A stretch of 64,000 bases of DNA from assembly GCA_963794295.1 (NCBI GenBank), contig CAWCDE010000006.1:18738-82737 (forward strand), written 5' to 3'. The stretch is from an uncultured Acidobacteriota bacterium (lineage in GTDB: Bacteria; Acidobacteriota; Thermoanaerobaculia; UBA5066; DATFVB01). The notes below the pieces were generated by a model that was given only the letters and a program-made list of their open reading frames with translations, made no database searches and had not been told where the DNA came from. The translations under genes were made by a program, and so were the position numbers. Every line of letters starts with the position of its first letter. The first letter of the stretch is position 1. Shown here one piece after another: positions 21,500-40,165 of this stretch.

Positions 21500-21620
21500 C
21501 GCGAAGGCGCGGTGAGGCGCGAGCCTGGCGGGATGCGGGCGTCCGAGCCCGCGGCGTACCGGGGCGTACGTTAAGGCCGCGGGTCGGAGCGCACGCCCCC
21601 CCCGGCTCGACGCATCGCCG
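21500..21620. repeat. GC-rich hairpin repeat, copy R2, core GGCGTACCGGGGCGTACGTTAAGG
   Basis: Core at 21553-21576, immediately 3' of guaB. The core is embedded in the CCCGCGG...CCGCGGG stem. The flanks CCCGCATCCC and GGCTCGC are shared with R3 and R5. Confidence 0.65.
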
Positions 21621-21629
21621 CGCCTCTAA

Positions 21630-25974
<4,345 letters not shown>

Positions 25975-26029
25975 CTGATTCTGTGTAAACCGTTAGCTTA
26001 TCAAATAGATTTCACGGCTCAGAGCGGCG

Positions 26030-26346: not shown

Positions 26347-27204
26347 TTACCTTGCGTCCAGAATATACGGGAGCGGATTCACCGCCCGGTTGTCCAGCCT
26401 GACCTCGTAGTGCAGATGCGGCCCGGTCGATCGACCCGTCGTTCCCACGACGCCGATCGCCTGCCCCCGGGACACGTGCTGACCCTCGAAGACCTGGATC
26501 TCGTCCAGGTGGCCGTAGAGCGTCCTCAGCCCGAGACCGTGGGCGATCTCGACGCACCGGCCGTAGCCGTTCACCCATCCGGCCTTCACGACGGTCCCGT
26601 CGGCGGAGGACACGATCGAATGGCCGCGCGGGCTCGAGATGTCGATTCCCGTGTGGAACGCGGGCTCCTCCGTGAAGGGGTCGCTCCGCTCTCCGAAGCC
26701 GCACGTGATGAGACCCGGAACGGGCTCGATCGAAGGCGTGTTCGACAGAAGGGCGTTCTGCTGCGCCAGCTTCTTTTCGAGGCCGAGCAGCCGTTCGTCG
26801 AGCGATCGGCCGCGCCCCTGGAGGTCGAAGGAACCGTTCGCGCCCTCCGGGAGCGCGCCGCCGGTGCCCCCCCGGCCGGCGTCGGCGAGAGCCGGGAGGC
26901 CGGCGACGATCGCGAGCTTCCGGGTGCGCTCCTCGAAATCGTCGAGCTTGCGGGAGAGAACCGTGAGCCGCGTCGTCATCTTCTCGGCCGAGACCTTCAG
27001 CCGTTCGTTCTCGAGGAGGGTGGCGCGGTAGGCCCGGTCCTTCCGGACCGAGACGAAATAGAGGGTGGTGAACGTCGCCGCGATCACCAGCAGGGCGGCG
27101 AGAGCGCCGCCGGCGGTCCAGAGGAGAGAGGAAGCGACCCGCAGCTTCCGGAACTTGGCCCGCGCGTGGGGCACGAAGATGATCGTGTTGTACTTCCGTC
27201 CCAT
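26347..27204 (-). CDS. M23-family murein endopeptidase with N-terminal TM and coiled-coil (EnvC-like)
   Basis: 285 aa. Coiled-coil region, then LytM/M23 motifs HTGIDI...GYG..VEIAHG...LYGHL...H.HYEV. Confidence 0.85.
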   Translation of the reverse strand: MGRKYNTIIFVPHARAKFRKLRVASSLLWTAGGALAALLVIAATFTTLYFVSVRKDRAYRATLLENERLKVSAEKMTTRLTVLSRKLDDFEERTRKLAIVAGLPALADAGRGGTGGALPEGANGSFDLQGRGRSLDERLLGLEKKLAQQNALLSNTPSIEPVPGLITCGFGERSDPFTEEPAFHTGIDISSPRGHSIVSSADGTVVKAGWVNGYGRCVEIAHGLGLRTLYGHLDEIQVFEGQHVSRGQAIGVVGTTGRSTGPHLHYEVRLDNRAVNPLPYILDAR

Positions 27205-27357
27205 CGTGGCTTTGCGACCTCCGGGAATCCGGGGTTTCCGGGAAAGTTCCGGCAGTATATCGCCCGAGTCGAACGAGTCAACCGGAAATCGCCTCCCGCA
27301 AATGCAGCCGGATCAGCGGGTTGCGAGATTCACTCCCGGCCGGCCACGGCTTACTGG

Positions 27358-28896
27358 TCAACCGGTCAGGCCGTCGACGACGCCTCGATCGAGCCCCCGA
27401 TAGCCGATCGCCTCGGCGGCATGCGGCGCCTCGACGCGGTCGGCCCCCGCGAGGTCCGCGATCGTGAGCCCGACCCGGAGCGCGCGGTGGATCGCCCGGG
27501 CCGAGAGGCCGATCTTCCTCGAGGCGAACTCGAGGATCGCGAGCGCCTCGTCCGTGGGCCGGGCGATCCTGCGGACGAGCGACCCGGGGATCGCGGCGTT
27601 GCACGAGATCGGGGCGCGGCGCGTCGAGCGGGCGCGCGCCCGCGCCCGGGCGCGGACGACGCGCGCGCGAATGGCCGACGAGGGCTCGGAAGAGCCGGCG
27701 GCCGCGAGATCGCGAAACGGGACGGCGGGGACGCGCACGTGCAGATCGATCCGGTCGAGGAGCGGTCCGGAAAGCTTCGAGCGATATCGCTCGATCTCGA
27801 AGCGCGAGCAGCGGCAGGCGCGGCGCGGATCTCCGAGGAACCCGCACGGGCACGGGTTCATCGCCGCGATCAGCTGGAAGTCCGCGGGGAAGACGCTCGC
27901 TCCCGAGGCGCGCGCGATCGTGACCCGCTTCTCCTCGAGCGGCTGCCGGACGACCTCCAGCGCGTCGCGCCGGAATTCCGGGAGCTCGTCGAGGAAGAGG
28001 ACGCCCCGGTGCGCGAGCGAGGCCTCGCCGGGACGAGGGTGCGCCCCGCCTCCGACGAGACCGGCGTAGGAGACGCTGTGGTGAGGCGCCCGGAACGGCC
28101 GCTCCGGCAGGAGGCCGCGGCCCGGCGGGAGGAGCCCGGCGATCGAATGGACGCGGGTCGCCTCGAGCGCCTCGTCGCGGCTCCAGGGAGGGAGGATCGA
28201 GGTGAGACGCCGCGCGAGCATCGTCTTTCCGGCGCCGGGCGGCCCGAAAAGGAGGATGTTGTGGCCGCCGGCGGCGGCGATCTCGAGCGCCCGCCGGGCG
28301 ACGGGCTGTCCGGCGATCTCGGAGAGGTCCTCGGCGAATCGGGACGGGGCGAAGTCGTTCGGGTCCGCGGGCGCCGGGGCGATCGCCTGGTCGCCGCGCA
28401 GATGCGCGATCGCGGCGGGGAGCGACGGCGCTCCGATCGACGCGATGCGGCCGACGGCGGCGGCCTCGCGCGCGTTCTCCTGCGGCAGGACGACCTCTTC
28501 GAACCCCCCGTCGGCGGCGGCCGCGGCGATCGCGAGCGCTCCCCGCACGGGCCGCAGGGCCCCGTCGAGGGCGAGCTCGCCGACGAGGACGCGCCGGGTC
28601 CCCCCGGAGGGGAGGATCCCCGCGGTCGAGAGGAGGGCGGCCGCGACGGCGAGGTCGAGCGCCGAGCCCTCCTTGCGCCAGTCGGCGGGGGCGAGGTTGA
28701 CGGTCACGGCGCGCGGCGGAAAGTCGAAGCCGCAGTTTCGAAGCGCCGCGCGGACGCGGTCGCGGCTTTCCTTGACGGCGGCGTCCGGCAGCCCGACGAT
28801 CGAGAACGACGGCAGGCCGTGGGAGACGTCCGCTTCGACGTCGAGGATCCGCGCCTCGGCGCCGTCGATCGCGGCGGAATGGATTCGGGAAAGCAT
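27358..28896 (-). CDS. comM: YifB/ComM-family Mg-chelatase-like AAA+ ATPase
   Basis: 512 aa, uninterrupted. N-terminal Lon-like (ChlI) domain, Walker A GPPGAGKT, ...VLFLDELPEF..., and the C-terminal Mg_chelatase_C motif. Confidence 0.9.
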   Translation of the reverse strand: MLSRIHSAAIDGAEARILDVEADVSHGLPSFSIVGLPDAAVKESRDRVRAALRNCGFDFPPRAVTVNLAPADWRKEGSALDLAVAAALLSTAGILPSGGTRRVLVGELALDGALRPVRGALAIAAAAADGGFEEVVLPQENAREAAAVGRIASIGAPSLPAAIAHLRGDQAIAPAPADPNDFAPSRFAEDLSEIAGQPVARRALEIAAAGGHNILLFGPPGAGKTMLARRLTSILPPWSRDEALEATRVHSIAGLLPPGRGLLPERPFRAPHHSVSYAGLVGGGAHPRPGEASLAHRGVLFLDELPEFRRDALEVVRQPLEEKRVTIARASGASVFPADFQLIAAMNPCPCGFLGDPRRACRCSRFEIERYRSKLSGPLLDRIDLHVRVPAVPFRDLAAAGSSEPSSAIRARVVRARARARARSTRRAPISCNAAIPGSLVRRIARPTDEALAILEFASRKIGLSARAIHRALRVGLTIADLAGADRVEAPHAAEAIGYRGLDRGVVDGLTG

Positions 28897-28998
28897 GGTC
28901 GGCTCCTCCGGGAGGCGGAGGAAGAGCCGCGCGTTCGCGATGAGGACGGTTGAAGGATAGCGCGCCGAGGCGCGCGTTTCAATCGGGAAGGATGAGCT

Positions 28999-30627
28999 TC
29001 AGCGGCTCTCGGCGACCGCGAGCCGTTCGCCGGGCCGGATCGCCGTCCCCTCGAGCCCGTTCCACTCGCGCAGCTTGTCCACGGTCGTGTGATGGCGGGT
29101 CGCGATCGAGAAGAGCGTGTCGCCGCGGCGGACGCGGTAGCGGGTGCGCGCGACGCCGGAGGACTCTCGATTCGACGCCCTCCGGCTCTTCCCCTTCCGG
29201 GCGGTCCAGGCGTCCGGCTCCCGGTCGGGGATCACGAGCATCCGCCGCGGGACGAGCCGGGCCCCGCGAGGCAGGTCGTTGGCCTCCGCGAGCGACGCTT
29301 CGGAGACGCCGTACCGCCGCGCGACGCGCGCGAGCGTCTCCCCCTTGCGGACGCGATGGCGGCGGAGCGCCGGAACCGAGGCGGCGGGAAGCTTTTCGGC
29401 CGTCTCGTTGACCGCCTCCGCGAGGCCGGCCGGGACGCGCAGCAGGTAGCCCGAGCTCTCGCGCGGCGTCACGAAAGTGCGGAGCTCGGGATTCAGCTCG
29501 GCGAGATCGTCGTAGGAAACTCCGCAGGCTCGCGCGACCCGCCGCAGGTCGACCGGTTTTTCGAGCCGCGCGGTCTCGAACTCGATCGGAGGCTCGGGGT
29601 CGATCTCGAAACCGTAGTGCTCCTGGTTCTTGCCGATGAGCGCCGCGGCGATGACCGACGGGACGTACAGCCGCGTCTCGCGGGGGAGCGCGCCGAGACG
29701 GCAGAGCTCCCAGTAATTGTCGGTCCCGGTGCGCGCGATCGCGCGGGCGACCCGTCCCTCGCCGCAGTCGTACGCGGCCATCGCGAGATACCAGTCGCCG
29801 AAGAGGTCGTAGAGGTCGCGGAAGTAGCCGGCGGCCGCCTCGGTCGCCTTCATCGGGTCGGACCGCTCGTCGACGAGCCGCGTGGTCCGCAGGCCGTACC
29901 GGCGCCCGGTCGGCGCGATGAACTGCCAGACCCCCTGTGCCCGGGCGCGCGACCGCGCGCCGGTCTTGAACGACGATTCGATCATCGCGACGTAGGCGAG
30001 GTCGGTCGGCAGCCCGGCCTTCCGGAAGGTCTCCCGGATCATCGGCATGTAGCGGCCCGCCCGGACGAGTCCCTCCGAGAAGCGCTCGCGCACCGTCTCG
30101 CGGGACGAGAAGCTCGCGATCATGGCGAGCACGGAGTCGTTCACGGTGATCGGGATGTCGAAGGTGCCGGCGCGGCGATCGGAGTCCACCGCCTCGCGCG
30201 CGCGCTGGAGGTCGGCTTCGGAGGTCTGCCCGGAGACGCCCTGCAGTTCGTCCGGGAGCCCGCGCGGCTCCGCGGCATCGGCGTCCGCGGCCGAGGGCGC
30301 CATGGCCTCGTATCTCTGGATCGAGTCGTAGAGAGACGCGGAGAACTCCTCGATCTCCGGAGAGGCCGGGCGGATCGCGCCCGGCGGGATCACCGCGTTG
30401 AGGGCGAGCTGGAACTGGGCCTCCGCGCAGTCGAAGTCGCCGGAGAGGGCGGCCTGCTTTCCCGAATAGAAGAGCTCGGTCGACCGGTCGATCGGCGAGG
30501 GAGCGGCGGCCGCGGAGGGCGGGGACGCCGGCGCGGCGACGGTGCTCGGCCGCGGAGCCTGGGAGCAGGAGAGCGCGAACAGGGCGAGAGCGGAAGCCGG
30601 GAGAAGACGCCTTCCGGAGGGGAGCAT
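28999..30627 (-). CDS. membrane-bound lytic murein transglycosylase (MltD-like: SLT domain plus two LysM domains)
   Basis: Lipoprotein-like signal (LFALSCSQ). SLT catalytic region (AYVAMIESSFKTGARSRARAQGVWQFIAPTGRRYGL...YLAMAAYDCGEGRV). Two C-terminal LysM repeats (HRVRKGETLARVARRYGVSEASLAEANDL; YRVRRGDTLFSIATRHHTTVDKLREWNGL). Confidence 0.85.
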   Translation of the reverse strand: MLPSGRRLLPASALALFALSCSQAPRPSTVAAPASPPSAAAAPSPIDRSTELFYSGKQAALSGDFDCAEAQFQLALNAVIPPGAIRPASPEIEEFSASLYDSIQRYEAMAPSAADADAAEPRGLPDELQGVSGQTSEADLQRAREAVDSDRRAGTFDIPITVNDSVLAMIASFSSRETVRERFSEGLVRAGRYMPMIRETFRKAGLPTDLAYVAMIESSFKTGARSRARAQGVWQFIAPTGRRYGLRTTRLVDERSDPMKATEAAAGYFRDLYDLFGDWYLAMAAYDCGEGRVARAIARTGTDNYWELCRLGALPRETRLYVPSVIAAALIGKNQEHYGFEIDPEPPIEFETARLEKPVDLRRVARACGVSYDDLAELNPELRTFVTPRESSGYLLRVPAGLAEAVNETAEKLPAASVPALRRHRVRKGETLARVARRYGVSEASLAEANDLPRGARLVPRRMLVIPDREPDAWTARKGKSRRASNRESSGVARTRYRVRRGDTLFSIATRHHTTVDKLREWNGLEGTAIRPGERLAVAESR

Positions 30628-30693
30628 TTCAAGTTTGTAGCAGACGGGCGGGCGCGCGTCAACAGGCATCGGGTCTCCGCGGCCCGTTCGGGC

Positions 30694-32057
30694 TCATTTT
30701 CCGGTGACGTGGAGCTTCAGGGAGACGAGGAGCTTCTCGATGTCACGCATGTCCGCGAGCTCGATCTCGTACCGGCGCTCCTCTCCGATGGTCCGGTTGC
30801 GGCCGTCGTCGAGGTGCACCGCGAACACGAGCCGGCCGGCCCGCGTCAGGTCCTTCTTCCGCACTTCGATCTCGTAGAGCTTCTGCACTTCCTTGCGGTG
30901 ATTCAGGCCGGCCGACAGGAGATCGTCGATCGAAGGCTCGCTCCGGTGCGCGCGCGGGGCGCCGACGGCATCGGTTTCAGGGTCGCGTTCTTCCGGAGCT
31001 TCTCGAGCTCCGAGAGGATGTCGACGTTGGACCGCACCTTGACGTGCTTGACGACGTCGCCCGCGGAAGCGGCCGCGGCCTGCTCGAAATCGACCTGGAC
31101 GGCGTCGTCGGCCGCCGCCGCCGGAGGCGGGGGGGATTGCCGTGCCGGTTCGATCGGCTCCTCGCCCGCGTCGGCGAGGAACTCCGGCGAGACGGGCGGC
31201 GGAGCCGGCGCGGGGGGCATCTCGTCGATGGCTTCCGCGTTCTCGAACAGCCCGTCGGAATCGATCTGCTCGGCGAGCGCGCTCGCGGCGGCTTCGGCGT
31301 CGGCCCGGAGATCCGAGAGGGACACGGGAGTCTCTTCGGCGGCCGGAGCGGGCGCCGGCGACGGGGCGGGCGGCGGCGCGGGCACGGGCCGGGCCGACTC
31401 CGCGGGAGGACGCGCTGCCGCGACCGCGGTGGGCCGCGAGAGGGCGCGCGCCGGCTTCTCCTCGCCCATCATCTTCTTCTTGAGCGCCTTGAGCGTCAGC
31501 TTCGAGATCTCCTTCAGCGTCTCGAAAACGCCGTCGCCCCGGAGGGCCACCGCCTCGACGTAGTTGAACTGTCCCTTTGGATCGAGCGATCCGCGCAGCT
31601 CGTCGACCGAGAGGACGTTGGCGAGGTCCCGCTTGTTGAACTGCAGCACGAGGGGGATCTCGGCGGCGGAGAGCCCGATTTCCTGGAGATTCGTCTCCAT
31701 GTTCTGGAAGCTCTCGACGTTGGCGTCCTTCATCGCCCTTTGGGAATCCGCGACGAACACGATGCCGTCGACGCCGCGGAGCACGAGCTTGCGCGTCGTG
31801 TTGTAGAAGACCTGTCCCGGCACCGTGTAGAGCTGGAGCCGCGTCTTGAATCCGCCGATCACGCCCACGTCGATCGGCAGGAGGTCGAAGAAGAGCGTCC
31901 GGTCCGTCTCGGTCTCGAGCGAGATCATCTCGCCGCGCGATCCCGGGGCGGTCTTCCCGTAGATGTGGTGGAGGTTGGTCGTCTTTCCGCAGAGGCCCGG
32001 ACCGTAATAGACGACTTTCGCCGCCATCTGCATCGTGGCGTAGTTGAAGAAAACCAT
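30694..32057 (-). CDS. MglA-like Ras-family small GTPase fused to a Pro/Ala-rich linker and an uncharacterised C-terminal domain of about 110 aa. One frameshift near 30900-30950.
   Basis: N-terminal about 195 aa align closely with Myxococcus MglA (MVFFNYATMQMAAKVVYYGPGLCGKTTNL...ISLETETDRTLFFDLLPID...FKTRLQLYTVPGQVFY...VDGIVFVADSQ...LQFNKRDL). ORF 30903..32057 continues through a P/A-rich region. The reading frame then continues in ORF 30694..30888 (...QKLYEIEVRKKDLTRAGRLVFAVHLDDG...). No mglB-like gene is adjacent. Confidence 0.7.
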
Positions 32058-32146
32058 CGAACCCGTGTGCTCCCTTACATCTGCTGAGCGAAGGACTCCA
32101 CCGTTATTGTATCAGCCCGAAGCGAAACTCCAAGGCGGTTCCCGGC

Positions 32147-32928
32147 TCATCGGCCGCGTTCTTCCGGCCGGGCCGCGCTCCGGACGGCGGCGGCGAGCGC
32201 GCGGTAGACCGTGCCGAGCTCCGGAACCCGCGCGAGCGCCCGGCGGTGGAGGCGCAGCGTGCCCTCGTCCCCGCGGGCGAGCGGGCCGGTCAGCCCCGCC
32301 GGGAAGCCGCGCGCGCCGACGTTCCCGGCGGCTTCCCGGGCGAGGGCGGCCATCGCCGGGAGGGCCCGGGCCTCCGGCATACCGGCGCGCCGCGCCGCTT
32401 CGGCCGCGAGCGCGACGAGAGTCGCCGTTCCTCCGGCGGCGGCGGCCGCCGCCGCGTGGTACAGGGGTTTCGCGGCCGCGGGGATGCTCCAGGGGCGGGC
32501 GCCGATCCGGCGCGCGAGCCGACGCGCGATCATCACGGCGGAGGGATCCCCCTCGATCGCGACGTCGGCGCCGGCCGCCGTTTCTCCGGGCGTTCCGGCG
32601 AACGAGCGGAGGGGATGGAGGAGACGACGCCCGCGCCGGTTTTCCTCCATCCCCGCAGGATCTCGGCCGGGAGCGCGCCGGAGAGATGCATCGCGCAGCG
32701 GGCGCTCGCGCCGGAACGCAGGAGCCGGGCCGATTCCCGGGTGATCGCGTCGTCGGGAACGGCGAGGACGAGGACGTCGAACGCCGCCGGGCGAGCGGTC
32801 CGGCGGATCCAGGCGACCCGCACGCCGGCCCCGGCGAGCGAGCGCGCGAGGGCCTTTCCGGCGCGCCCGCGTCCGCGGATCGCGACGCGGGGAGCGGCGG
32901 GGCGTTTCGGCGCGGCGCAACGAGCCAT
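32147..32928 (-). CDS. Rossmann-fold NAD(P)-binding oxidoreductase (DUF2520/ProC-like family), frameshifted
   Basis: N-terminus in ORF 32533..32928 (VAIRGRGRAGKALARSLAGAGVRVAWI...FDVLVLAVPDDAI). C-terminal part in the 3' portion of ORF 32147..33472 (...PLYHAAAAAAAGGTATLVALAAEAARRAGMPEA...). Confidence 0.55.
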
Positions 32929-32969
32929 CTGGGTTATTCTTTGAATCTAACACCGATCGGAGCAGGGAT

Positions 32970-34038
32970 TTGGTCACCCGCGAAACGAACGAGGCGCTCG
33001 ACGAACGGGCCCGCGAGGTCCTGAAGGAGATCATCCGTATCCACGCGGAGACCGGCCGGCCGGTGTCCTCGCGCTCGCTCGCCAAGCGCCGCCGGTTCCA
33101 CGCCTCCGCGGCGACGCTCCGCAACCTGATGGCCGATCTGACCGATGCCGGGTATCTGCAGCAGCCGCACACCTCCGCCGGGCGCGTGCCGACCGAGAAG
33201 GCGTATCGCCAGTACGTCCGGACGCTCATGAAACCGAAGGAGCTCACCGCAAGCCAGCGGGAGCTCGTTTCCGTCGATCTGTTCGACGCCGGCCACGATC
33301 CCGCCGTGCTGTTCCCGGCGGTTTCGCGGCTCCTCTCGAAGCTCTCCGGGGAGGTCGGGGTCGTGATCGCGCCCGACGCGCGGCGATCGGTCGTGCGGGA
33401 GATCCGCTTCGTCCCGATCGGCCGCGAGAAGGCGCTCGCGATCCAGGTCGGGGACGGCGACCTCGTCTTCACGCGGCTGATCGAGACCGGCGGGCGGCTC
33501 GACGCGGCGGCGCTCGAGCGCGCCGGCAGCTATCTCACGGCCGAATTCGGCGGCGCGACGCTCGTCGCGATCCGGAACCGCGTCACGATCGCGATGCAGG
33601 AGGAACGGGCGAGGTTCGACCACGCCCTCTTCGAGACGCTCGACCTCGCGCGCCGCGCGATCTCGCCGGCCGGCCCCGCGGACATCTATACCGAGGGAAC
33701 CCGCCGGCTCCTCGAGCGGCCGGAATTCTCCGAGCCGGAGAGCCTGAAGAAGGTGTACCGCGCCTTCGAGGAGAAGGCGAACCTCGTCGAGCTCCTCGAC
33801 CAGTGCCTCGAGGGGGAGGGACCGCGGATCGTGATGGGCTCGGAGAGCCACCTGACCGCGGGGAAGCCCCTGTCGGCCGTCGTCACCCGCTACGGATCCG
33901 AGAACCGCGCGCCGGGCCTGCTCGGCATCATCGGATCCCTGCGGATGTCCTATCCGCGGATCGTCCCGCTGGTAGAATTCCTCGGGAAGGCTCTGTCCGA
34001 AAAGCTGGACGAGCCCGCGGAAGGAGGGGATATTTCCC

Positions 34039-34055
<17 letters not shown>
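32970..34055 (+). CDS. hrcA: heat-inducible transcription repressor HrcA
   Basis: 361 aa. N-terminal winged helix (RAREVLKEIIRIHAETGRPVSSRSLAK), HrcA C-terminal domain. First gene of the hrcA-grpE-dnaK-dnaJ cluster. Confidence 0.85.
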
Positions 34056-37562
<3,507 letters not shown>

Positions 37563-38579: not shown

Positions 38580-39377
38580 CATGGCGCACTCGCTAGAAAT
38601 ACCGGGGGTTCCCTTTCCCTTCCCCGGATACAGCCCTCTCCCGAGCGCCCTCCGCAGGTATTCGATCCCGTCCCGGACGGCGTCCGGCATCGGCGCGCCG
38701 CGCGCGAGATTGGCGGCGATCGCGGAGGAGAGCGTGCACCCCGTGCCGTGCGTCGCCTCGGTGTCGATCCGGAAATACGCGAGAACTCGATGAATTTCCG
38801 GCCGTCGAAGAAGAGATCGCGGATCTCGCGGCCCTCGCCGTGTCCACCCTTGATGAGCACCGCCCGGGCGCCGAGGTCCGCCAGGACGCCGGCGGCGAGC
38901 CGGAGGTCTCCCTCGTCGCGGATCGCGAAGCCCGCGATCGCCTCCGCTTCCGGGAGGTTCGGCGTCACGAGCGCGGCGATCGGAAAGAGCTCGCGCTTCA
39001 TCGCGGCGAGCGCGGCGGGAGAGGAGCCGGGCGCCCGAGGTCGCATGGACGATCGGATCGAGAACGACGTTTTTCGCCTTGCCCTTCCGCAGGGCCCGCG
39101 CCGCCGCGGAGACGTTCGGGGCGTTGCCGAGCATCCCGATCTTCACGGCCCCCGGGACGGCGTCCGAGAGGATCGCGGCGATCTGTTCGGCGAGCAGCGG
39201 GCTGGCGACCGCCCGGGTCCGGGTGATTCCGCGGGTGTTCTGGACCGTGATCGCGGCCACCGCGACGGTGCCGAACACTCCGTGCGCCGCGAAGGTCATG
39301 AGGTCGGCGACGACGCCCGCGCCGCCGCCCGGATCGACGCCCGCGATCGTGAGCGCCACCGGGAGAGGGGTCGCCAT
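38580..39377 (-). CDS. thiD: hydroxymethylpyrimidine/phosphomethylpyrimidine kinase ThiD, frameshifted; 3' end approximate
   Basis: N-terminus [48 protein letters not shown] in ORF 38403..39377. Middle ([12 protein letters not shown]...AVLIKGGH) in ORF 38513..39046. C-terminal [22 protein letters not shown] back in the first frame. Confidence 0.75.
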
Positions 39378-39475
39378 TCCGAGAGTGTACCCCCCGCGCG
39401 CCCGGAAGGCCGGCGCGGTTGACCGCGGCTTCCCGTTCCGGTACCGTTCGCCCTTCCGGCGGAAGAAGGGGAGAA

Positions 39476-40165
39476 ATGGCGAAGAAGCTGCGGCGAGAGG
39501 ACTTGAAGCGGGACGAAGTCATGGAGACCGTCGGAAAGGGCCTCCAGTTCGTTTCGGTCCACCGGCGGGCAGCGTCGAGACGGTGGGGATCGCCATCGGG
39601 CTCGCCGCCCTGATCGGCGCCTTCGTCGCGTTCCGCGCGCGCCGGGAGTCGCAGGCCGCCGACCACCTTTCCCGCGCGCTCGCCGCTCTTTCGGCTCCCC
39701 TCGCGGGCGACCCGTCGGCGGGAACCGCCGCGAACGTACCCGGCCGCCGCGGAACGGAGCGCCGACACGAATCGCGAGCTCGCCGCCGCGGCCGAGTTCG
39801 GCACGACGAAGTCCGGCCGCGAGGCGGCGGTGATTCTCGCCGCCCAGGGGGATCGAAGGACACGGGCGCGTTCAACCGGTTCGCGCGGAGCGGCAAGACG
39901 GCGATCACCGCGGCCGCGGAGCTCGACGCGTACCGGACGATGAGCGATTCCGGGAAGACGACGGAGGCGATCGCCGCGGTCAGCGGCGATCGAGACCTCC
40001 TCGACCGCCGTCCCGAAGGATGCCCTGCTCGCCGAGCTCGGCGCGCTGTACGAGCGGTCGGGCTCGCCGCGCCGACGCGAAAGCGACCTACCAGCGCCTC
40101 GTGAGCGAGTATCCCGATTCGCCGTACGCCTCCGATGCGCAGAGCCGGATCGGGCAACTGCAGTA
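39476..40165 (+). CDS. YfgM-like membrane-anchored TPR protein, frameshifted
   Basis: [26 protein letters not shown], then a TM helix ([18 protein letters not shown]) in another frame and a C-terminal TPR-like ...[25 protein letters not shown] stop (TAA near 40163). Confidence 0.5.

Follow-up and report, generated by a model that had tools for sequence, protein, structure and literature searches.

What does an MglA-type GTPase do with a long C-terminal extension, and how might it be wired when no mglB gene lies next to it? These questions are raised by a gene, here called mglA-tail, in 64,000 nucleotides of DNA from an uncultured Acidobacteriota bacterium (contig CAWCDE010000006.1 of assembly GCA_963794295.1, positions 18,738 to 82,737; this whole stretch is referred to as the window). 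We are confident that mglA-tail encodes a single protein of 454 residues, in which a disordered linker, long and acidic, connects a catalytically complete group-1 MglA GTPase to a conserved module at the C terminus. Relative to known MglA, what is new is this conserved C-terminal tail, which is in no domain or structure library examined.

The gene is broken in the deposited contig. An open reading frame (ORF) at 30903..32057 of the minus strand encodes 384 amino acids, beginning with MVFFNYATMQMAAKVVYYGPGLCGKTT and including QFNKRDL, and an ORF in another frame at 30694..30888 of the same strand holds the last 64 codons of the C-terminal domain. The preliminary description of this DNA had recognised an MglA homologue with a fused C-terminal extension and an apparent frameshift near 30900-30950, and had allowed that the extension could turn out to be a separate downstream ORF created by a sequencing error. 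We located the defect as a single missing base between AGCCTT and CGATCGAC, at 30933/30934 of the window; it is placed there because the closest homologues read without interruption across the break as ...KPMPSAPRART(G)(G/A)(S)LSIDDLLS.... Correction unites both pieces as one gene, and the repaired protein of 454 residues aligns end to end with P0001-P0004 (444-458 residues) at 82-85% identity and 100% coverage, and likewise with over 100 other unbroken proteins. With the approximately repaired protein as query, we recovered more than 120 proteins of 441-507 residues that have no interruption, about two thirds of which align over the whole query in a single local alignment. Thus, homologues read through G domain and tail in one frame, which disposes of the separate-ORF reading; the matches to known structures described below likewise bear out the MglA homologue with its fused extension.

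The frameshift is a sequencing or assembly error rather than gene decay, because other genes of the window have frame breaks too, because many of the related genomes are long-read metagenome-assembled genomes (MAGs), and because similar breaks are found at two long-read MAG loci (L037 and L045). Compared with three intact relatives, frame breaks affect dnaK (near 36180), secA, guaB, a gene with a DUF2520 domain and a thiD-like gene of the same window, and conserved genes are split in the regions 21600-26000, 32600-32640, 36180 and 38600-39500. A true pseudogene with a biological frameshift would account for the truncated 384-residue ORF of the deposited contig (P0005, 100% identity), but it is very improbable here: dnaK and secA would have to have been lost as well, which is implausible, and coding quality remains high in both halves of mglA-tail, which are 87-93% identical to the closest orthologue. 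More generally, the window stems from an error-prone, probably long-read, assembly, and ORF-based readings of it need frame correction.

The same fusion recurs in other genomes. Scanning one genome from each species with a tail profile yielded 139 genomes. The best 80 of these 139 are all Acidobacteriota, mostly labelled Thermoanaerobaculia; in the closed 3.84-Mb chromosome L001 the tail is 93% identical to that of the window. In 75 of 77 related loci no stop codon interrupts the shared frame of G domain and tail, and more than 130 proteins with a total length of 393-650 residues carry the fusion unbroken. An exhaustive search of 1.84 billion representative proteins with the tail profile gave 179 clusters. 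Every match reaches the C terminus of its protein, and an MglA domain stands at the N terminus of every complete protein; those that are short resemble fragments or products of mis-called starts. Across these 1.84 billion proteins the tail is found solely as an appendage of MglA. Divergent members with only 38-46% overall identity (P0143, P0168, P0204 and P0223) have the same architecture, and so the fusion is old as well as real, extending across the Thermoanaerobaculia and to more distant relatives. In their source annotations the homologues are called 'MglA' or 'signal recognition particle receptor subunit beta'. Our literature searches found no description of this MglA tail and no papers on MglA in Thermoanaerobaculia, and a keyword search of the text of a 2014 survey of prokaryotic Ras-like GTPases gave no passage on a C-terminal MglA fusion (PMC4316618).

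The G domain is that of a catalytically complete MglA. Residues 1-194 match MglA structures, the Thermus thermophilus protein (3T12_A) with an E-value of 7.5e-70 over residues 3-190 and the Myxococcus xanthus structures 5YMX, 6H17 and 6HJH at about 5e-69 with whole-length alignment. Pfam and NCBIfam searches with the truncated ORF gave only weak Ras, Arf and small_GTP matches for this domain. The P-loop GPGLCGKTT occupies residues 19-27 and QFNKRDL residues 139-145, with NKRD at 141-144. Residues G19, G21, K25, R53, T54, T78, G81, Q82, N141, K142 and D144 are invariant in 119 family members. Among these, the intrinsic arginine finger R53 lies in TETDRTLFFD of switch I, and the G3 motif YTVPGQ has a threonine (T78) in place of glycine and the catalytic glutamine Q82. 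Also invariant in the 119 members are the pocket positions V64, I67, K182 and K/R186. The invariant residues of the G domain agree with the group-1 MglA signature as given in the survey by Wuichet and Sogaard-Andersen (PMC4316618). Structural similarity, TxxGQ with its catalytic glutamine and the arginine finger in switch I thus place the protein in group 1. From typical members, which consist of one domain of about 195 residues and have a coupled mglB, it departs in both features: it has 454 residues here and 393-650 in the family, and, as described below, no coupled mglB.

Constraint on the G domain is unusually strong. Across the 80 loci its median identity to the window is 78%, compared with 59% for the neighbouring ComM, 52% for GrpE, 48% for HrcA, 47% for the tail and 45% for a neighbouring MltD-like protein; its identity ranges from 74 to 96% across the class, above the neighbouring ComM, HrcA and GrpE. 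A G domain that is better conserved than adjacent housekeeping genes suggests many simultaneous interaction constraints.

The extension consists of a variable linker, a signature helix D-I-L-x-E-L-E-K-L-R and a beta-rich domain of about 65 residues (Table 1). The linker and C-terminal domain had been estimated at about 150 and 110 residues; we measured a linker of 139 residues, 47% of them proline or alanine, and a conserved C-terminal region comprising residues 336-454. The signature segment (residues 336-359) holds the best-conserved tail positions: in a diverse alignment of 62 sequences D346 and L351 never vary and E350, L354 and R355 hardly do, and the motif D-[IV]-[LM]-x-E-L-[ED]-x-L-R occurs in almost all of 135 full-length members. 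This helix motif is better conserved than any other part of the tail, even in the most distant members. Next come a short spacer, SIDDLLSAGLNHRKE and a stretch of about 65 residues with alternating hydrophobic residues. An AlphaFold model of the 137-residue tail, made with a diverse alignment, has predicted local distance difference test (pLDDT) scores of 87-95 over the last 65 or so residues and predicts the signature motif to be helical.

As the preliminary description had put it, the C-terminal domain has no obvious family. We found no Pfam match for the window tail or for 62 diverse tails, no NCBIfam match for the tail piece, no Protein Data Bank (PDB) match by sequence or with the 62-sequence profile, and no hit at E <= 1e-3 when the tail model was compared with the PDB by Foldseek. 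We also considered a PilZ domain, a zinc-ribbon or GltJ-like domain and a membrane-targeting helix, and rejected them: the tail has no cysteines or PilZ motifs, and its helix carries acidic residues.

Within the otherwise variable linker, subgroups keep short acidic motifs of their own (residues 243-277, about 31227-31331; columns 340-375 of alignment A1). In the subgroup of the window the motif is SLSDLRADAEAAASALAEQIDSDGLFENAEAIDEM, which is predicted to be helical, and in most other Thermoanaerobaculia it is FDxxDVETVQEFExALxSLDAPLPE. They could be short linear motifs for interaction.

Table 1. Coordinates of mglA-tail, its parts and the neighbouring genes in the window.
Feature	Position	Strand	Details	Basis
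Whole mglA-tail gene	30694..32057	-	454 aa once one missing base is restored; TGA stop at 30694-30696	full-length homologues
Shine-Dalgarno-like AAGGGAG	32070..32076	-	12 nt upstream of the ATG at 32057	sequence
MglA-type Ras-like G domain, aa 1-196	31470..32057	-		PDB matches and conserved residues
Acidic Pro/Ala-rich linker, aa 197-335	31053..31469	-	net charge -18; length and sequence vary across the family	
Family signature segment VKHVKVRSNVDILSELEKLRKNAT, aa 336-359	30981..31052	-	predicted helix; D346, E350, L351, L354 and R355 nearly invariant	
One-base deletion splitting the ORF	30933..30934	-	true reading ...RARTGASL-SIDDLL...	
Short acidic helix SIDDLLSAGLNHRKE, aa 376-390	30889..30932	-	kept in most members, not all	
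Beta-rich C-terminal domain, aa 391-454	30697..30888	-	AlphaFold pLDDT 87-95; no known fold or family found	
MltD-like lytic transglycosylase	28999..30669	-	SLT and 2 LysM, lipobox-like FALSC; immediately downstream of mglA-tail	
ComM/YifB-type Mg-chelatase-like AAA+ protein	27358..28896	-		
Peptidase M23 protein	26347..27204	-		
Rossmann-like and DUF2520 gene	32147..32928	-	upstream; frameshifted near 32610-32634; DUF2520 E 3.1e-29; intact in L089	
hrcA	32970..34055	+	first gene of the divergent hrcA-grpE-dnaK-dnaJ operon	

We looked for MglB both beside the gene and inside the protein. Queries were MglB of M. xanthus (identical to PDB 6H5B_B), MglB of T. thermophilus and a two-sequence hidden Markov model, run with filters off (--max) against all six-frame ORFs of the window and of 89 related loci (1.45 Mb). 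These searches revealed no mglB, either in the 64 kb of the window or up to 10 kb away at the 89 loci, the best E-value (0.23) being noise. Likewise, no roadblock protein is among the four genes on either side (mltD-like, comM, the M23 gene and secA; DUF2520, hrcA, grpE and dnaK), and no roadblock domain is listed in the precomputed Pfam annotation of eight loci from distant members. The earlier observation that mglB is not adjacent thus holds after frame correction, for the neighbourhood that was searched. The survey counts an mglA as coupled when mglB lies within four genes (PMC4316618), and by that criterion, with none in this range, the gene encodes an orphan MglA.

The absence of a neighbouring mglB, together with catalytic residues that still need orienting, is what one would expect if the C-terminal domain were a fused MglB-like GTPase-activating protein (GAP) of the roadblock/LC7 type, a built-in partner as the preliminary description had suggested. 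The tail itself gives no sign of this. Its lack of Pfam matches includes Robl_LC7; alignment of the tail profile with M. xanthus MglB by hhalign gave a probability of 0.2% over 8 columns; and the profile search of the PDB returned nothing. The predicted order of elements (a helix, short helices and a hairpin) differs from the alpha-beta-beta-alpha-beta-beta-beta order of a roadblock domain, which has about 100-120 residues against only about 65 in the folded part of the tail. Although several MglB structures are in the PDB set searched by Foldseek, no MglB or roadblock structure is among the 50 best matches shown. As far as these sequence and model comparisons tell, a roadblock identity for the tail is disfavoured, and we regard a built-in GAP as scarcely credible.

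How, then, does the protein compare with MglA systems that have been described? With the group-1 proteins of M. xanthus and T. thermophilus (5YMX, 6IZW and 3T12) it shares the full-length G domain (E about 1e-69), the GPGLCGKT P-loop, R53, T78 for the usual G3 glycine, Q82, NKxD and the pocket residues. Canonical MglA consists of one domain, about 195 residues in length, with mglB adjoining, whereas this protein has about 260 extra C-terminal residues and no mglB within 10 kb at the 89 loci. Orphans have precedents: according to the survey, MglA of Bdellovibrio bacteriovorus and SofG of M. xanthus function without a coupled mglB (PMC4316618). In the literature searched, none of the described orphan MglAs has this tail. 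The extension that SofG does carry beyond its G domain is N-terminal and unrelated to the tail described here. Bdellovibrio MglA has a substitution at the glycine equivalent to G12 of Ras and is thought to be GTP-locked; in the mglA-tail family, by contrast, G21 is invariant in 119 sequences. In overall plan the protein also recalls eukaryotic Ras, Rho and Rab GTPases, which share a G domain, a variable flexible linker (the hypervariable region) and a conserved C-terminal targeting element. The eukaryotic signal is short and lipidated or polybasic, whereas here there is a folded domain of about 65 residues plus a helix with no cysteine lipidation motif; the two are not homologous.

Another parallel is provided by helices of two MglA partners. 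The one at the C terminus of MglB binds the alpha5/beta2-beta3 pocket, as a Glu-rich one in RomR probably does; both are short, acidic, amphipathic and flexibly tethered (Baranwal et al. 2019, PMC6785124). The mglA-tail protein has the same pocket residues together with conserved acidic or amphipathic tail helices, whose sequences loosely resemble the MglB and RomR helices. Those helices act in trans, as parts of a roadblock GAP and a response regulator, whereas any candidate here would act in cis.

The genes around mglA-tail were named correctly in the preliminary description. The downstream neighbour has an SLT domain (6e-24) and two LysM domains (2.3e-29); it scores 191 bits against the NCBIfam MltD equivalog, below the cut-off of 508, and we call it MltD-like rather than an equivalog. 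ComM has a ChlI N-domain (2.5e-42), Mg_chelatase (5.7e-92) and Mg_chelatase_C (1.8e-24), and the upstream DUF2520 gene is genuine, if frameshifted. The gap between mglA-tail and the MltD-like gene, given before as 25 bp, is indeed tight, at 24 nucleotides when the first ATG is used, and contains no terminator-like site. In Thermoanaerobaculia the order is fixed, with a divergent hrcA operon (dnaJ, dnaK, grpE, hrcA) followed by DUF2520, mglA-tail, the MltD-like gene, comM and the M23 gene, with secA and guaB next in L001. Among loci with enough flanking sequence, the MltD-like protein is present in 72/72, ComM in 63/63, M23 in 51/60 and HrcA in 67/67. Conservation of the MglA-MltD-ComM neighbourhood therefore holds for the Thermoanaerobaculia loci and for two distant loci described below (L082 and L083), and fails in three others (L086-L088), where these genes are not beside mglA-tail. 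Overall, the link to the transglycosylase is recurrent, not universal, and this arrangement supports co-expression and nothing beyond.

From these elements we propose the following mechanism. The G domain would work as an MglA-like GTP/GDP switch, whose R53 finger and Q82 would need a partner for alignment. A flexible tether of 200 to 450 residues would carry the folded C-terminal module, which would fix or assemble this switch at a particular site or partner, such as a polar or envelope-associated complex, possibly through self-association of the beta domain. Any GAP that is needed would act in trans from elsewhere in the genome, and co-transcription with the MltD-like lipoprotein, and often ComM, would point to an envelope-spanning process, the candidates being pilus or competence machinery and local cell-wall remodelling. 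Protein length varies from 393 to 650 residues while the helix motif and the beta domain persist, which is how a tether with a functional end-module would behave. We advance the tail's role as a tether, targeting or assembly module tentatively, as a possibility; the architecture and this mechanism taken together form the overall explanation towards which we lean.

Some of our own observations sit uneasily with this tether mechanism. The tail model assigns strand to one hairpin only, although its flanks have high pLDDT, as would be seen with a partner-completed fold or a modelling artefact; the predicted beta sheet may be completed by a partner or a second copy of the protein. The full-length AlphaFold model, built with 119 close homologues, is poor even in the G domain (pLDDT 55.7) and is uninformative on contacts between tail and G domain. 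The absence of mglB applies to the neighbourhood only. As for the genetic context, the MltD-like and ComM genes lie 6 kb away in L085; L086, L087 and L088 keep the divergent hrcA operon only, with purM/PilZ or nrdR/lon downstream and no mltD or comM; and conserved order within one class may reflect inheritance rather than function.

It is quite possible that this last point applies to the neighbourhood as a whole, so that gene order was merely inherited in the lineage and has no functional meaning. Retention of the hrcA operon in L086-L088 beside quite different downstream genes, and the 6-kb separation in L085, fit this explanation. So does the expected location of the products: the MltD-like protein is presumably periplasmic and the GTPase cytoplasmic, so no direct contact is expected and any coupling would be indirect. 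Simple inheritance sits less well with the distant loci L082 and L083, in which both flanks are wholly different from those in Thermoanaerobaculia and yet mglA-tail, SLT/LysM and comM remain contiguous, with a 4-nucleotide overlap and an 8-nucleotide gap. L089, which keeps hrcA, DUF2520, mglA-tail and SLT/LysM, likewise has a 4-nucleotide overlap with SLT/LysM, and in the window there is the short, terminator-free gap. The earlier suggestion of a polarity or envelope-remodelling module remains uncertain, its basis being gene order only.

The main alternative to tethering is regulation in cis, whereby a tail helix (D-I-L-x-E-L-E-K-L-R or SIDDLL) would dock into the protein's own allosteric pocket, on the G domain, and so promote exchange of the nucleotide or gate it, making a partly self-contained switch. 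In M. xanthus MglA the pocket residues L64, I67, K181 and K185 accommodate MglB's acidic C-terminal helix and, probably, RomR's Glu-rich one, and conservation of the pocket lysines is reported mainly for cases in which a partner has a D/E-rich helix (PMC6785124). The equivalents V64, I67, K182 and K/R186 are the invariant pocket positions noted above, the tail has conserved amphipathic and partly acidic helices, and its best-conserved element is a helix motif that persists in the most distant members. Moreover, P0168, the sole member without K182 (K to E), has no SIDDLL and a degraded helix motif, a single case. Conservation of the pocket would be equally expected, however, if an MglB or RomR with such a helix were encoded elsewhere in the genome and acted in trans. 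Moreover, the acidity of the signature helix is mild and its end is basic, its likeness to the MglB helix was judged by eye, and the full-length model is too poor to inform on docking. On this evidence we think regulation in cis rather unlikely. More speculative still, and improbable as a complete picture, is a polarity switch in one polypeptide, in which either or both of the two helices would occupy the alpha5/beta2-beta3 pocket in cis and take over the exchange or GAP-assisting role of MglB and RomR, while the beta domain would dimerise or anchor the protein at a machine of the envelope, for which the co-transcribed MltD-like enzyme would open a passage across the wall, with no roadblock partner in Thermoanaerobaculia.

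MglA is a model of Ras-like spatial control in bacteria, and what is known of it rests on separate partners, namely MglB, RomR/RomX and effectors. Were the tail to localise or regulate the switch, it would represent a second way of wiring the MglA module and add a new protein domain family. The constant pairing with a lytic transglycosylase offers a concrete hypothesis, in which a GTPase of the cytoplasm is connected with the cell wall or with pili and competence, for a phylum whose cell biology has hardly been studied. Should an ordinary mglB be present elsewhere in the genome, the finding would shrink to a variant of domain architecture; should complete genomes lack any roadblock partner, the interest, moderate now, would be considerably greater.

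Several minor features of the locus deserve mention. A promoter scan gave no consensus sigma-70 site directly upstream of mglA-tail, where TTGGAG-N16-TACAAT can be picked out by eye and fails the rule of the scan. Within the gene cluster, sigma-70-like matches on the minus strand precede only comM (28954-28982, TTGAAA-17-TATCCT) and the M23 gene (27254-27281, TTGACT-16-TATACT), and these two genes may also be transcribed independently of mglA-tail and the MltD-like gene. Scans of the window for tRNAs and Rfam families gave only two tRNAs, unrelated to mglA-tail. The plus-strand hrcA (TTG start at 32970) and the minus-strand DUF2520 gene (ATG at 32928) diverge across about 41 bp (32929-32969), and in several distant lineages (L086 and L088) it is mglA-tail itself that diverges from the hrcA heat-shock operon. 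Finally, in two independent assemblies a PilZ-domain gene lies two genes after the mglA-tail of a 650-residue distant member, past purM (L086, 9954-10661; L087, 3489-4190), which could be chance or a hint of a link to cyclic di-GMP or pili.

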